A stretch of 64,000 nucleotides of DNA, from positions 1,888,001 through 1,952,000 of the forward strand of contig CBDCKW010000009.1 of assembly GCA_965218435.1 (NCBI GenBank). Reading direction: 5' to 3'. A program made the position numbers and the translations under genes. Numbering within the stretch: position 1 is the first letter of the stretch; each line of letters begins with the position of its first letter. The DNA is from Truepera sp. Its GTDB lineage: Bacteria; Deinococcota; Deinococci; Deinococcales; Trueperaceae. The notes under the pieces are model-generated. The model saw only the letters and a program-made list of their open reading frames with translations. It was not told the DNA's origin and ran no database searches. This document shows positions 17,709 through 23,421 of the stretch, piece after piece.

Positions 17709-19094
17709 TCAGATGTGAATCGCCCGCTCATCGACCGCCATCGCCGCTTCCTTAAACGCCTCGGCTAAGGTCGGATGCGCGTGCGAGGTTCGGGCTACGT
17801 CTTCGGCTGACGCCCCGAACTCGAGCGCAGCCACGGCCTCGGCAATCAGGTCACCGGCCCTCGAGCCCAAGATATGCACCCCTAGCAAGCGGTCGGTTTT
17901 CGCGTCGGCTAACACCTTGACCTTGCCGTCGGTGTGACCCAGCGCCCGCGCCCGCCCGTTAGCGACAAAGGGAAATGTTCCCTTTTTGTACTCGACGCCT
18001 TCTTCCTTGAGCTGCTCTTCGGTCTTGCCGACCGAGGCAATTTCGGGCTCGGTATAGGCGACGCCCGGAATCGCACCGTAGTTGACGTGTCCGACACCCG
18101 TAGCGATGCCTTCAACACAGGCAATACCCTCTTCTTCGGCTTTGTGCGCGAGCATCGCGCCACCGATCACGTCACCGATGGCGTAAACGCCCGAGACTTT
18201 GGTTTTGAAGTGCTCGTCTACCGGGACAAAACCGCGTTTATCAAGTTCTAAACCAATCGCTTCGACGTTGAGCCCGTCCGTATTCGGTTTGCGCCCGACG
18301 GCAACCAAAACGCGGTCAGCTTCGAGCGGTTCCTGCCCTTCGATTTCGACCACGGCTTTGTCACCCTGCGCCTTGGCCGAGGTGACCTTCGCGCCAAGCT
18401 TGAACTCTAAGCCCTGTTTCTTAAACAGTTTGAGCGCGTCCGCCGCAATTTCGGCGTCCATCCCCGGCAAAATGCGGTCTAAAAACTCGACGACGGTGAC
18501 CTTGGCTCCCAAACGGCTCCAGACCGACCCAAGCTCGAGGCCGATATACCCTGCCCCGATGACTACCAGATGCTCCGGTACCTGGTCATAAGCAATCGCG
18601 TCGGTTGAAGTACCGACCACTTTGCCGTCAATCTCAATACCGGGTAGGACGACGCTAGACGAGCCCGTCGCAATGATGATACGTTCGGCTTCTAGTTCGG
18701 TATCGCCGTCTTGACCGGAAACCGTCAACTTACCCGGCGCGGAGAAGCTCGCCGTACCTTCGTAACGCGTCACGCCGTTCTTTTTGAACAGCCCCGCCAC
18801 GCCGCCGGTCAACATCTTGACCACTTTGTCTTTGCGTTTATGCATATTGGCCAGGTTCAAGGACGCTCCCGACACGTCAATGCCGTACTCTTTCAGTGCG
18901 CCTTGCGTCTCGAGATATTTTTCTGAGGACTCGAGCAGCGCCTTGCTCGGGATACAGCCAACGCGCAAGCACGTTCCGCCTAAAGCCGGTTCTTGTTCAA
19001 CGCACGCTGTATCAAAGCCAAGTTGCGCGGCGCGAATCGCTGCGACGTAGCCGCCAGGCCCCGCACCGACGATGATAAGATCATGTTTAGCCAC
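17709..19094 (-). CDS. lpdA: Dihydrolipoyl dehydrogenase
   Basis: GAGPGGY, GGTCLRVGCIPSK, HAHPTLAE. Confidence 0.97.
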   Translation of the reverse strand: MAKHDLIIVGAGPGGYVAAIRAAQLGFDTACVEQEPALGGTCLRVGCIPSKALLESSEKYLETQGALKEYGIDVSGASLNLANMHKRKDKVVKMLTGGVAGLFKKNGVTRYEGTASFSAPGKLTVSGQDGDTELEAERIIIATGSSSVVLPGIEIDGKVVGTSTDAIAYDQVPEHLVVIGAGYIGLELGSVWSRLGAKVTVVEFLDRILPGMDAEIAADALKLFKKQGLEFKLGAKVTSAKAQGDKAVVEIEGQEPLEADRVLVAVGRKPNTDGLNVEAIGLELDKRGFVPVDEHFKTKVSGVYAIGDVIGGAMLAHKAEEEGIACVEGIATGVGHVNYGAIPGVAYTEPEIASVGKTEEQLKEEGVEYKKGTFPFVANGRARALGHTDGKVKVLADAKTDRLLGVHILGSRAGDLIAEAVAALEFGASAEDVARTSHAHPTLAEAFKEAAMAVDERAIHI

Positions 19095-19227
19095 CTAAAA
19101 CCTCCATACCAATAAGTTTACCTGTCTTGCTACGACAAATTAGTTGGCGACACGTAAACTTTCATGCATCACAACTCAAGAGCGGTTTTCGTTTATAGTT
19201 TAGCTAGAACAGCTTTTGAGAGGCTTT

Positions 19228-19422
19228 GTGGGAGAAAACAAGCGCCTGAAGAAACAGTTGGAAGGATTGCAACTTCAGGTGGACAAACACAACCTCAAGA
19301 TTGCTGACGAGTTGCGAAGAGAGCATCCTGATCGCGGCCTTATAGAGCACTGGCAGAGAGAAGTAGATACATGGCGAACACAAGTTCAAAAGAAAAGAGA
19401 CCGGCTCGAGCGGAAACGCTAG
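19228..19422 (+). CDS. Small basic hypothetical protein
   Basis: GAGAGG RBS then GTG; MGENKRLKKQLEGL...HPDRGLIEHWQREV; overlaps the next ORF. Confidence 0.65.
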   Translation: MGENKRLKKQLEGLQLQVDKHNLKIADELRREHPDRGLIEHWQREVDTWRTQVQKKRDRLERKR

Positions 19423-19733
19423 ATAGAATTCTAAACATTCCCGGTGTGGTCGGTGAACCCGTCTGGAAAGAGTTAGCCGACGAAGCCGAGGTGTATCTCG
19501 AGCTGTACAAACACCTGTCTAAAGAACCGCTGGATTCACCTGAACGTGAAGCGTTAGAAGACAAGATGGTTATGTCGCTAGCACACCTTTCTACGCACAG
19601 TAAAATTCTCTACGCTTCAGTTGACGAAGCTATAGAGACAAACTTAATTGAAGAAGTAAAGTTTGAGAATGACTTGCAGGAAAGTTTTGTTGAAACTCTA
19701 AGTACGGGACAAAAGCCGAATACAGAAGTGTAG
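19371..19733 (+). CDS. Small acidic hypothetical protein; C-terminus replaced by the IS4 insertion
   Basis: ORF reads into the IS end at 19698; the pre-insertion frame resumes after the TSD at 20836. Confidence 0.55.
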   Translation: MANTSSKEKRPARAETLDRILNIPGVVGEPVWKELADEAEVYLELYKHLSKEPLDSPEREALEDKMVMSLAHLSTHSKILYASVDEAIETNLIEEVKFENDLQESFVETLSTGQKPNTEV

Positions 19734-20774
19734 ATCGTGATGTTTAAGGGGTAGATTCTTAAGCAGATGCCTGAGATGATCGAGACCATGCCTAAAGAAT
19801 GATTTTTCTCTGCGGAGGTGTGACTTAAGGCGCAAAGGCTTTTGCTTAGTGTCGTGGAGCCATTCTCCTATATGATGCGCCCAGGTAAAGGCAAGAGCTA
19901 GCAGCGTAAAAAGGGTGTCAAGCCGAGCGAGTTGAGTGAGATGGGTTGACTCCATATCAAAGCCTGTTTTCTTTAGAGCAGCAAAAAGCATTTCTATCTC
20001 CCAACGACGCTTGTAGGTGAGAAAGGCTTGAGCGGGCTTACGGTTGGTAGCAATGATGGCGTAGTCGTCGTGGGCGAGCTTCATACCGACAAGGCGTAAG
20101 CGGCAACCATGGAGGTTGCAAGTGTTGCTGACTATCTTGAGTTCACCTATAGGCAAAGATGCAAAAAGCGCATAGGCTGAACACCAGGGGTTGCATAAGC
20201 TATCCTTGCGAATACGAATAGCAAAAGGAACGTGGCGCTTATCCAGGTAGTTAAACCAAGTTACCCCGATAAACTCTCTATCTGCCAAGAAAAAGTCGAT
20301 ATCTCGGGGCTTGACAAGCTCGAAAAGGCGTTGTAGCAGGTCAATGCGCTCATCGTCTGACGAGTTGCCTCGCTTCTCCAGAAAACTCCAAACTATAGGA
20401 AAGGCAACGCCTCTATGGGCAATGGCGATTACCAGGATGTTGATATCGCACCTGCCGAACTGCCAGTTCGTCCGGTCAACGCAAACGGTATAAGGCGGCG
20501 GCGGTAAAAAGCTCAAAATCAGTTGGGCCACCTTGAGCTTATCCAGACGCACCTCTGCAAAAAAACGCTTGAGGCGGCGATAAGATGATTCCGGTTGAGC
20601 TGCGCCTTGAAACGCTAAGCTTAAACTGACCAGGTTGATGCTCTTCTCTTGCACAAGTACCAGCAACAAGGTACTCAGACATTTCAGCCTGGCTCCATTC
20701 ATAGGCAACTTCGCTGCTAGCGTTTCTTTCAGTCTTGTCTTATGCTGATAGTGGCTTCCTTGAGATTCTTTCAC
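19698..20774 (-). CDS. IS4-family DDE transposase
   Basis: DRTNW, LADREF, Y..RW.IE..F..LK (YREK) signature; stop codon lies in the IR. Confidence 0.93.
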   Translation of the reverse strand: MKESQGSHYQHKTRLKETLAAKLPMNGARLKCLSTLLLVLVQEKSINLVSLSLAFQGAAQPESSYRRLKRFFAEVRLDKLKVAQLILSFLPPPPYTVCVDRTNWQFGRCDINILVIAIAHRGVAFPIVWSFLEKRGNSSDDERIDLLQRLFELVKPRDIDFFLADREFIGVTWFNYLDKRHVPFAIRIRKDSLCNPWCSAYALFASLPIGELKIVSNTCNLHGCRLRLVGMKLAHDDYAIIATNRKPAQAFLTYKRRWEIEMLFAALKKTGFDMESTHLTQLARLDTLFTLLALAFTWAHHIGEWLHDTKQKPLRLKSHLRREKSFFRHGLDHLRHLLKNLPLKHHDLHFCIRLLSRT

Positions 20775-20826
20775 ACAGCTATTCTCGCTTAGGAAGCCGC
20801 TTCTTGTCTTTTTGTCCCGTACTTAG
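19698..20826 (-). mobile_element. IS4-family insertion sequence, 1129 bp, apparently intact
   Basis: Perfect 17-bp IRs CTAAGTACGGGACAAAA; 9-bp TSD GTTGAAACT at 19689-19697 and 20827-20835. Confidence 0.95.
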
Positions 20827-20873
20827 GTTGAAACTATAGAGGTAGAAACACATAAATCACTGGGGATGGGTAC

Positions 20874-21486
20874 ATGGGTACGTCTGCACAAGAAGCTATA
20901 GTAGACTTCTGGAATTACCTTAACAGGTTGACAGTAGAGCATGGGCAGGAGCTTGAAAGAGAAAGGTTGGAGCTACAAAAGATTACCAGTTCAAAAAGTG
21001 GTAGAGCAAAGAAAAACAAAGAAGTTAATCGACTTCTTGATAGCACTACAAACCTTGTCAATCAATATACAGATAGAATCAGGCTGTGCTACTTGCCGGA
21101 TGCGTCCCCACCACCCGCCTACAAACCTTGTCAATCAATATACAGATAGAATCAGCACAAGATTACCCGAATACAGATACAACGTAGGAAAGTATGTTGA
21201 AGCTTATCCAAAATTCGCCTTTTGGTTTGCCAGCACAGATAAGAGCGAAGAGGCGCAAAGGCAAGAGTTATACAGAGCTTTGAGAGACTTCAAAGAGACC
21301 TCAGAAAGCCTTGTTGGTAGCATGTCTGAATTTATAGACAATGTACAAGGGCTTGGACGTACTGCTTTAGAAGACTTAGGTCATACAGGACTTAATAATG
21401 CTTGTATGAAGTTGGTCGGAAAATTGGTAGGTACGCTAGATACAGTGAGAGAATTAAACGACCACCGCCAGAGGCGGTGGATTTGA
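20874..21486 (+). pseudogene. AT-rich helical protein gene disrupted by a 73-bp duplication plus insert and truncated by IS200
   Basis: Deleting 73 bp fuses ORFs 20874..21149 and 20941..21486 into one frame (...TTNLVNQYTDRISTRLPEY...). Confidence 0.8.
21046..21155. repeat. Exact 37-bp direct repeat flanking a 36-bp unrelated insert (repeat-spacer-repeat)
   Basis: CTACAAACCTTGTCAATCAATATACAGATAGAATCAG at 21046-21082 and 21119-21155; insert at 21083-21118. Confidence 0.95.
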
Positions 21487-22028
21487 AAATGACTCTAGAA
21501 GAGAAAGTCCTGCTGATTGCGTTCTTCCTCTTTTTCGCGCTTCTCTTGGTACTTCACATAACGACGGATCAGGTCTTCGTTTATACCTACAGTGTTGACA
21601 AAGTAACCGCGTGTCCAAAAGTGATTCCCCCAGTATGGTTTCTTCCGTAAGCCTGGCTAGCTTTTGAACAACTTGATGGCAAGCTTCCCTTTGAGAAATC
21701 CCATGAAATCCGATACTGACAACTTGGGAGGAATTGAACAAACCAAGTGGATGTGATCGGCTTGAACACTCAGCTCTATTACTTCTACAGAGCGCCACTC
21801 ACAAAGCGTATGGACGTCCTTCTCAACCAACTCTTTGACCATACCCGTCAGCACTCGGTAACGGTATTTAGGCACCCACACAATGTGGTAATTACACTGA
21901 TAGACAACGTGCGCAAGCTTTCTATACTTCCCCACGCCTTAGGGTACGACCTATGTGTCCCAGGCGAAACAGTAAGGCATAGCCGACGTTACATCACCAC
22001 CGCCAAAGACGGTGGGTTTTCACGCTAA
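21455..22028 (-). mobile_element. IS200-like element (tnpA only); ends approximate
   Basis: Subterminal hairpins CCACCGCC-aga-GGCGGTGG (21462-21480) and CCACCGCC-aaa-GACGGTGG (21997-22015) flank tnpA. Confidence 0.85.
21495..21935 (-). pseudogene. tnpA: IS200/IS605 Y1 transposase TnpA with nonsense codon at 21657-21659
   Basis: YHIVWVPKYR, DHIHL (HuH); the frame continues after TAG as PGLRKKPYWGNHFWTRGYFVNTVG...IRRYVKYQ. Confidence 0.9.
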
Positions 22029-22029
22029 A

Positions 22030-23421
22030 CTAAACTTCGAGCAGCATCCTCGCCGGGTTTTCTACCGCGTCTTTGACGCGTTTTAAGAACGTCACCGCTT
22101 CACGTCCGTCTACAATCCGGTGGTCGTAGGTCAGCGCGATGTACATCATGGGGCGGATGACCACTTCGCCGTTTAGGGCAATGGGCCGCTCGAAGATGCC
22201 GTGCATCCCCAAAACGCCCGACTGCGGCGGATTGACAATCGGTGTAGACATCAGGGAGCCGAACACGCCACCGTTTGAGATGGTAAAGGTGCCGCCTTGC
22301 AGCTCTTCAGGCGTAATCTTATTGGTCTGCGCCCGTTTGCCGAACTCGGAGATGGTGCGCTCGAGTTCCGCGAAACTCAGCCGCTCAGCACTGCGAATCA
22401 CCGGCACGAGCAAGCCCTTTTTCGAGCTGACCGCGACGCCGATGTCGTAGTAATTTTTGTAAACGATCTGCTGCTCACGAATTTCGGCGTTAAGCTGCGG
22501 AATCTGTTTAAGTCCGTCGATCACGGCTTTGACAAAAAACGACATAAAACCCAAACGCGTGCCCTCGTAGCGTTTTTGGAACTCCTCTTTGAACTCGCTC
22601 CGAAGGTCCATTACGGCGCTCATATCAACTTCGTTAAAGGTGGTGAGTAGGGCAGCGTTCGCCTGCGCTTCGACGAGCCGCTCGGCGATGCGGCGGCGCA
22701 GTGGACTCATCGGCACAGCTTCTTCTTGCCGGTCACCGGTTGAAGTTTGCGGCGCTGAAGTCGGTGCGGGGGTTTCTTTCGGCGCGGGTTTTTGCTGGAC
22801 TTCTTGCTGTGATTTTTTCTGTGGTGCAGGCTCCCTGCTCTGCTCATCTACGGTGCGCTGCACGTCTTCTTTAAGGACGCGGCCCCCCGGACCGGTCGCG
22901 CGTACATCCCTTGCAGACAAACCGTGCTCGTCTAACAGGCGCTGCGCGGCAGGCATGATGCGCACGTCCTCCGCGCCGCTTTCAGAAACATTGTCGGAGA
23001 GTTTTTGAGCTTGCGCGTCCGTAGCTTCGCCGGGTTCCGGGTCGAAGGCCATCTCCGGCGCTTCGTCTTTTTCACGTTCTGCAGAGGCTGATTCATCGGA
23101 CGCACCCGCTTCGGTTTCGCTACGCTCGGCGTTATCGTCGGTACCGGCGTCTTCAGTACCGGTATCACCAGCACTCGAGTCACCTGCTGCGTCGCCGACT
23201 TGCGCGATAACTTCGCCGACGGTAGCCGAGTCGCCCTGCTGTTTGGTCACGCCGCTTAAAATCCCGGAAACTGGGGCGGGAACCTCGAGCGTCGCCTTGT
23301 CGGTTTCAATCTCAACTAGCGGCTCGTCTTTTTCGACCGTTTCCCCATCCTGTTTAAGCCACGAGCCGATAAAGACTTCCGTAATGGACTCGCCGACTTC
23401 AGGAACTTTTACTTCAGCCAT
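22030..23421 (-). CDS. sucB: 2-oxoglutarate dehydrogenase E2 (dihydrolipoyl succinyltransferase)
   Basis: Lipoyl domain IETDK, E3-binding domain, [17 protein letters not shown]. Confidence 0.97.

Follow-up and report, generated by a model that had tools for sequence, protein, structure and literature searches.

A 37-bp duplication around a 36-bp insert in a Truepera gene remnant: a probable scar of off-target spacer integration by a type I-C CRISPR system

A broken gene in a low-GC stretch

The window that we analysed is a 64,000-nt stretch (G000:C9:1888001-1952000) of the genome of a Truepera species, which is 4.8 Mb long and assembled in nine contigs; positions are those of the window unless a contig is named. 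Between lpdA (17709-19094, minus strand) and sucB (22030-23421, minus strand) lies a low-GC stretch that is found at the same place in a sister species of the same genus, G005 (19100-22035 in the window; 700-1950 of locus L007). The stretch contains two small genes, one for a basic, coiled-coil-like protein of 68 aa and the other for a protein of 260-304 aa, which is the gene that received the insertion described here. Both were sought without success in the other four genomes of the genus, and neither has a Pfam match above cut-off or a PHROG family.

In the window, the larger gene lies in pieces. Its proximal remnant (19371..19697, plus strand) can be aligned to G005 and its start matches that of 304-aa homologues, up to the point where it is cut off by an IS4-family element of 1129 bp that encodes a DDE transposase (19698..20826, minus strand; PF01609, 44.5 bits). 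This element ends in perfect inverted repeats of 17 bp, and a target duplication of 9 bp, GTTGAAACT, lies on either side of it (19689-19697 and 20827-20835); the genome holds one more identical copy of it and six copies at about 75% identity. The distal remnant (20874..21486, plus strand) begins inside an 8-bp tandem duplication, ATGGGTAC twice (20866..20881, plus strand), which appears as an 8-nt gap in G005 and frameshifts the gene relative to that species; in fact, the second copy supplies the ATG of the open reading frame that starts at 20874. The 3' end of the gene is truncated by an IS200-like element of 584 bp with a Y1 transposase (21452..22035, minus strand; PF01797, 84.5 bits; six identical copies in the genome), which provides the last eight codons (DHRQRRWI) and the stop. 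The transposase frame of the IS200-like element is only 92 aa long and covers positions 2-82 of the 121-position Y1_Tnp profile; the end of the element carries a GC-rich hairpin, and the element reaches up to, or into, the last 6 nt of the sucB frame.

A single 37/36 unit

The feature that concerns us sits inside the distal remnant. A left 37-bp copy (21046..21082), which is coding sequence of the host gene and encodes ..TNLVNQYTDRI, is followed by a spacer-like insert of 36 bp (21083..21118) and by a right 37-bp copy (21119..21155), at which the reading frame of the gene resumes; none of the three features is assigned to a strand. This exact duplication around a 36-bp insert had been pointed out in a preliminary description of the locus, and the repeat search of the window returned it with the same limits: two copies of 37 nt, 100% identical and 73 nt apart from start to start, with no inverted repeats reported in the region of the unit. 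The duplication cannot be extended, the preceding bases being A and C and the following bases G and C. The two parts of the unit differ widely in composition, with 12/37 GC in the repeat and 25/36 (69%) in the insert, against 42-44% in the surrounding 200-500 bp and 57% in the genome. The 73 bp that were added split the distal remnant into two frames, such that the open reading frames 20874..21149 and 20941..21486 belong to two different frames of one gene. Removal of 73 bp joins them again, as had been claimed, and this restored frame is the one actually read in the homologues P0003 and G005 described below.

The unit is alone of its kind in this genome. The 36-mer is single-copy, with all but one of its 14-mers unique, and the 37-mer is found nowhere else. 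A genome-wide scan for further duplications of about 37 bp, as proposed in the preliminary description, was made in two ways: exact 20-mers that recur at a spacing of 45-110 formed five clusters, and a more relaxed scan, in which 22 or more of 24 positions had to match at offsets of 50-94, yielded nine loci. The other loci of these scans are two CRISPR arrays, tandem repeats of short period, two tRNA genes in tandem and, on contig C6, a pair of iteron-like copies. Neither scan of the 4.8 Mb found a second unit of 37+36 geometry outside the two arrays, and the relaxed scan found no unit with a 30-bp duplication. Thus, the 37+36 geometry exceeds chance and the genomic background. The unit has not grown either: it consists of two copies and one insert, and no further spacers have been added. 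The iteron-like pair (G000:C6:9296-9431) lies on a contig of 21 kb; its two copies are imperfect, about 66 nt long and spaced 78 nt apart.

The empty site and the order of events

We searched for the gene in 40 relatives and in the genome itself. Among the relatives it was found in G005 only, and there the site is empty: the match falls into two pieces whose overlap is exactly the 37-mer, and nothing corresponds to the 36 bp. The alignment contains one gap of 73 nt and a single 37-mer, 33/37 identical, within an uninterrupted open reading frame of 260 aa. A protein search, which returned seven proteins, led to the same picture much closer to home. One of these proteins, P0003 (179 aa), comes from another, near-identical assembly and is uninterrupted at the site; it matches the window in a left piece at 69/69 residues and in a right piece at 120/121, the 11 residues encoded by the 37-mer being counted in both pieces. 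All six homologues that could be aligned, P0003 included, read through the site without insertion. The insert, which the preliminary description took to be foreign to this gene, is therefore absent from G005, P0003 and five other homologues, and an uninterrupted allele exists both in the sister species and in the near-identical assembly that encodes P0003. No match in metagenome_contigs was found for 25 nt of flanking sequence that are conserved in G005.

P0003 also allows the lesions of the gene to be placed in order. Like the distal remnant, it begins with MGT and ends with the residues encoded by the IS, but it lacks the 73 bp, so that the IS200-like insertion and the 8-bp duplication came first. 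The gene was thus truncated before the 73-bp unit entered it, and the insertion inactivated nothing. The event had initially been described as a fixed ectopic adaptation event acting as a mutagen; ectopic integration remains the preferred reading, the word 'fixed' is not one that we retain, and the mutagenic role falls away because the gene was already broken by IS elements.

Support from reads

The stretch is present, as k=31 unitigs, in two sequencing runs of one sample (X1 and X2), which may be the source of the assembly. In each run, one 96-nt unitig covers 21053-21148, that is, 30 nt of the first copy, the whole insert and 30 nt of the second copy. Of the unitigs that flank it, one ends 30 nt into the first copy and the other starts 30 nt before the end of the second, again in each run. 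Thirty nucleotides into each copy is the maximum that a k=31 unitig can reach, and is one short of a 31-letter bridging rule. The insert and the words at both of its junctions are genuine read content and no invention of the assembler. Loose ends of the read unitigs were also seen at 21452-21454, at the edge of the IS200-like element.

The depth of the insert unitig was 321 in X1, with flanks at 427 and 417, and 54.6 in X2, with flanks at 82.6 and 80.3, and so amounted to 75-77% of the flanks in X1 and to 66-68% in X2. A population in which only part of the cells carry the 73 bp could account for this lower depth, as could uneven coverage or biased errors in an insert so rich in GC; since the k=31 graph is the same for pure and for mixed alleles, it does not discriminate between them. 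The two runs are not identical around the unit. X1 matches the window, while X2 differs from it by a C-to-T change at 21208, supported at full depth, and by the loss of 4 nt at 20669. The T at 21208 is the allele encoded by P0003 and by G005 (Ser for Pro), yet the insert is present in X2. This leaves two explanations: both states of the unit coexist in the population, or the repeat was collapsed in the assembly that encodes P0003.

The resident CRISPR-Cas systems

The genome encodes two cas1 and two cas2 genes, all matched without stops. One pair belongs to a chromosomal type I-C operon with cas3, cas5c, cas8c, cas7c, cas4, cas1c and cas2, all of them open frames, in which Cas1c reaches 503 bits (cut-off 385) and Cas8c, at 192.9, falls short of the curated cut-off of 218.65. 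The adaptation module, Cas4-Cas1-Cas2, lies at G000:C9:2952372-2954388, about 1.04 Mb from the unit, and the array directly after the operon (C9:2954576-2955912) has 18 full repeats of 37 nt and a degenerate last one. Its 18 spacers are 34 nt (three), 35 nt (nine), 36 nt (five) and 37 nt (one) long, and its repeat folds into a hairpin with a 9-bp stem (-17.7 kcal/mol, z -4.5). The second system, of type I-B, is on contig C3; its repeats are 30 nt long, with 55 exact copies, its spacers are mostly 35-38 nt (18 of 36 nt and 20 of 37 nt), and its Cas4, Cas1b and Cas2 are open frames. The unit, with 37 bp duplicated and 36 bp inserted, agrees with the I-C system in both dimensions, and with the I-B system only in the length of the insert. 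The comparison of repeat and spacer lengths, which the preliminary description had proposed as a check, thus points to one of the two systems. The I-B system (G000:C3:1130-4914) stands at the start of its 49.8-kb contig, which may be a plasmid, and with about 58 repeats of 30 nt its array is three times larger than the chromosomal I-C array.

The 37-nt repeat class extends beyond this genome. At up to 3 mismatches, 6 of the 128 genomes of the family contain the I-C repeat family when the unpublished genome G115 is included (5 of 127 when it is left out), and it does not occur in G005, which holds the empty site. The closest relatives of Cas1c were examined at 80 loci, 41 of which had an array in the flank examined and 39 of which did not. 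Repeats of 37 nt with spacers of 33-37 nt were the commonest class in these arrays (21/41); the remainder had repeats of 31-33 nt (11/41), 38-39 nt (2/41) or 17-29 nt (7/41), the seven calls of the last class probably being too short as a result of a crude extension step. The best matches of Cas1c in genome_contigs came from many phyla and did not exceed 64% identity. By repeat length, the type I-C arrays of the Cas1c relatives (L021-L100) form two classes, with repeats of 37 nt that end in GAGGATTGAAAC and repeats of 31-33 nt that end in GTGGATTGAAAC. Arrays of the 37-nt class also have a common motif in the leader, immediately before the first repeat, and this motif singles out the leader of the present genome.

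The target site

Does the site that was duplicated look like a place where an adaptation complex would normally act? The preliminary description had remarked that the duplicated segment does not resemble a canonical repeat, and its identities to the native repeat are indeed at chance level (6/37 and 11/37; random mean 9.5, sd 2.7). The same is true of the leader, to which the site has 14/60 and 12/60 identities (random mean 14.9, sd 3.4). For a leader matrix we took 30 leaders of 37-nt-class arrays, not including that of this genome, and reduced them to 27 by removing near-duplicates. Over 4 million scored positions the matrix placed the own leader in the top 0.04% and the flanks of the unit at 11% and 82%. 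No IHF-like or leader-like context was detected at the unit.

Nor does the segment fold like a repeat. The duplicated 37-mer has folding energies of -1.0 and -1.8 kcal/mol on its two strands, no better than shuffled sequences, compared with -17.7 for the native repeat, and it carries nothing of the conserved 3' handle. Rfam returned no match over the unit or over the cas1 locus. The label of a nascent CRISPR unit, under which the locus was first described, is thus not one that we would keep, since the unit has neither a repeat hairpin nor a leader-like flank. AT-richness is the only visible feature of the site. Because the site is neither repeat-like nor leader-like and has no structure, the choice of site looks promiscuous as judged from these comparisons.

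The source of the insert

One frame of the insert reads AVLLAGCVPTTR, which resembles a lipobox. A strict lipobox, L[AS][GA]C, occurs in any frame in 0.37% of 50,000 random 36-mers from the genome. An origin from a lipoprotein signal sequence is plausible, although the argument is a post hoc one. The preliminary description proposed to look for the 36-mer in the genome and the virome. The genome contains no second copy of it. In blastn the insert hit 35 phage records and 4 plasmid records, all at no more than 67% query coverage and with E values of at least 0.3, that is, at chance level; at up to 3 mismatches it was present in none of the 127 other genomes of the family. A codon-degenerate pattern, in which every third base of the lipobox frame was left free, had no match in genome_contigs, viral_contigs or metagenome_contigs. 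Likewise, when the spacers of the I-C (18) and I-B (55) arrays were compared with the genome itself in search of a PAM, only chance matches of 20-23 nt were obtained. The PAM of type I-C systems is 5'-TTC. As no protospacer was found, neither the PAM nor the orientation of the insert can be derived.

Discussion

We propose, with a probability that we would put at about 85%, that a single off-target spacer integration by the type I-C Cas4-Cas1-Cas2 of this genome left the unit behind as a scar. Off-target integration by Cas1-Cas2 was also the reading of the preliminary description, and it is now supported by the match of the 37/36 dimensions to the I-C array, by the empty site, by the reads and by the single-copy nature of the insert. 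To explain the anatomy of the unit, we envision that Cas1-Cas2 bound a processed, GC-rich prespacer of 36 bp from a foreign source, which may have been the part of a lipoprotein gene that encodes the signal peptide. The two 3'-OH ends of this prespacer would then have attacked opposite strands of ordinary chromosomal DNA at points 37 bp apart, a spacing that would correspond to the usual span of the integrase across its own 37-bp repeat, and repair of the gaps would have duplicated the 37-bp target. The gene that was hit is AT-rich and was already inactive, so the event was probably neutral and could persist. Moreover, a duplicated segment that lacks the repeat hairpin is not expected to support crRNA processing, which is why we speak of a scar and not of a working array. 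Several points speak against the proposal. The searches returned no protospacer, the site resembles neither the native repeat nor the leader, and the read unitigs, from a single sample that may also have given the assembly, stop one letter short of the bridging rule in each copy. Moreover, there is only one such unit in the genome, and hence no replication of the event within it.

Could the same structure have arisen without Cas proteins? A Cas-independent process would combine foreign or filler DNA with a target duplication, for instance when a fragment is captured in the repair of a break whose ends are staggered by 37 nt. In favour of this reading, the site resembles neither repeat nor leader, and neither a protospacer nor a PAM was found. 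Yet nothing in such a process predicts a duplication of precisely the length of the resident repeat, together with an insert within the resident spacer range, and we consider it very unlikely. A transposon or MITE was rejected: the insert is single-copy and without inverted repeats, and its duplication is 37 bp long compared with 9 bp for the IS4-family neighbour, an element in the very same gene which bears out the earlier statement that target duplications of IS elements are far shorter. Slippage or tandem duplication was rejected as well, the 36 bp between the copies matching nothing local or elsewhere in the genome. If Cas proteins were responsible, the integrase might have been that of the type I-B module on contig C3, whose Cas4, Cas1b and Cas2 are open frames and whose spacers of 35-38 nt would accommodate a 36-bp insert. 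This alternative is highly improbable in our view, as repeats of 30 nt lead one to expect a duplication of about 30 bp and not of 37 bp.

Two further readings concern the nature of the unit itself, and we give almost no credence to either. The unit has the minimal repeat-spacer-repeat layout with I-C dimensions and could, on that basis, be a mini-CRISPR array in use (a working neo-CRISPR) that yields crRNA. The feeble fold of its repeat (-1.0 and -1.8, versus -17.7 kcal/mol for the native one), the missing conserved 3' handle, a flank that is not leader-like, its one spacer and the lack of an Rfam match over it all speak against such a function. The unit could also be a chimera of assembly or sequencing, a suspicion fed by the fact that both runs come from one sample, maybe the one from which the assembly was made, and that a second, near-identical assembly encodes the uninterrupted protein. 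However, both runs contain the insert and its two junction k-mers in their unitigs, with depths of 321 and 54.6 that are similar to those of the flanks, and a chimera would not give a duplication of exact repeat length. We are thus led back to integration by the I-C machinery.

How does this proposal relate to systems already described? Repeats of the E. coli type I-E system are 28-29 nt long; the system considered here differs in being of type I-C, with Cas4 and with repeats of 37 nt. Off-target integration with duplication of a repeat-length target is established for over-produced E. coli I-E Cas1-Cas2 by Nivala et al. 2018, as reported in PMC7054753, PMC11788318 and bioRxiv 10.1101/148544, and the resulting loci were named 'neo-CRISPR' (Nivala, Shipman and Church 2018, Nat Microbiol; also as reported in PMC9456107 and PMC6698737). 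As far as these accounts describe the E. coli loci, the unit resembles them in having a spacer-sized insert outside arrays and a repeat-length duplication of ordinary DNA. It is unlike them in that the E. coli events followed from over-produced proteins and supplied oligonucleotides, according to the same accounts, whereas the present event is natural, and in that an empty ancestral site is available here from a sister species. For natural off-target integration, bioRxiv 10.1101/148544 speaks, where it addresses the matter, only of 'circumstantial evidence' from two other species. The Cas1-Cas2 proteins of P. furiosus and T. profunda are described as integrating promiscuously on their own in vitro (PMC6698737, PMC13769266), and the off-target sites of P. 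furiosus are said to have features in common with repeats (PMC6698737). Similarity of the site to repeat or leader is thus a reported tendency and no strict requirement; we did not find it here.

Closer to home, the event looks like canonical I-C adaptation at the resident array (C9:2954576-2955912), with a duplication of 37 bp and a spacer length within 34-37 bp; unlike canonical adaptation, it took place at a target with no repeat and no leader, and its product is devoid of hairpin and 3' handle. Ectopic acquisition in the CRISPR1 and CRISPR3 arrays of Streptococcus thermophilus, as outlined in PMC7999890 and PMC5338259, also puts a spacer away from the leader-proximal repeat; it does so at a genuine internal repeat, whereas the present event lies in non-CRISPR DNA about 1 Mb from the array. 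Finally, a parallel exists with the target duplication of transposable elements, represented here by the IS4-family element in the broken gene, in which a staggered attack on two strands and fill-in likewise produce flanking direct repeats. There the products are a 9-bp duplication and a multi-copy element of 1129 bp with inverted ends, compared with 37 bp around a single-copy insert of 36 bp that has no inverted ends. Taken on the evidence of sequence, the unit is best classed as a natural, type I-C case of the known kind of off-target integration: it displays every feature of that kind which sequence can test except a PAM, repeat or leader similarity not being required.

On its own, the unit is a single event, of value as one data point in a wider survey. 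As a natural example it is unusually well controlled: the genome contains two systems with different repeat lengths, only one of which fits, the ancestral empty site is available, and the order of the event relative to an IS insertion can be read. The target has nothing in common with either repeat or leader, which suggests that the 37-bp spacing is set by the integrase and not by the repeat sequence. The case also suggests that errors of off-target integration survive where they are harmless, and that CRISPR adaptation is a low-level source of small insertions.

A tentative extension, which we regard as doubtful, is that the insertion is very recent and still polymorphic in the population that was sequenced. 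The hint comes from the insert depth of 66-77% of the flanks, from run X2, which combines the T allele of P0003 with the insert, and from the near-identity of the assembly in which P0003 lacks it. If the unit is polymorphic, a wild-type, non-induced I-C system may be making off-target integrations on a timescale visible among near-identical strains or, alternatively, the unit may be in the course of being lost by recombination between its 37-bp copies. Were the insertion indeed recent, the strain would allow the natural rate and the site choice of off-target adaptation to be measured.
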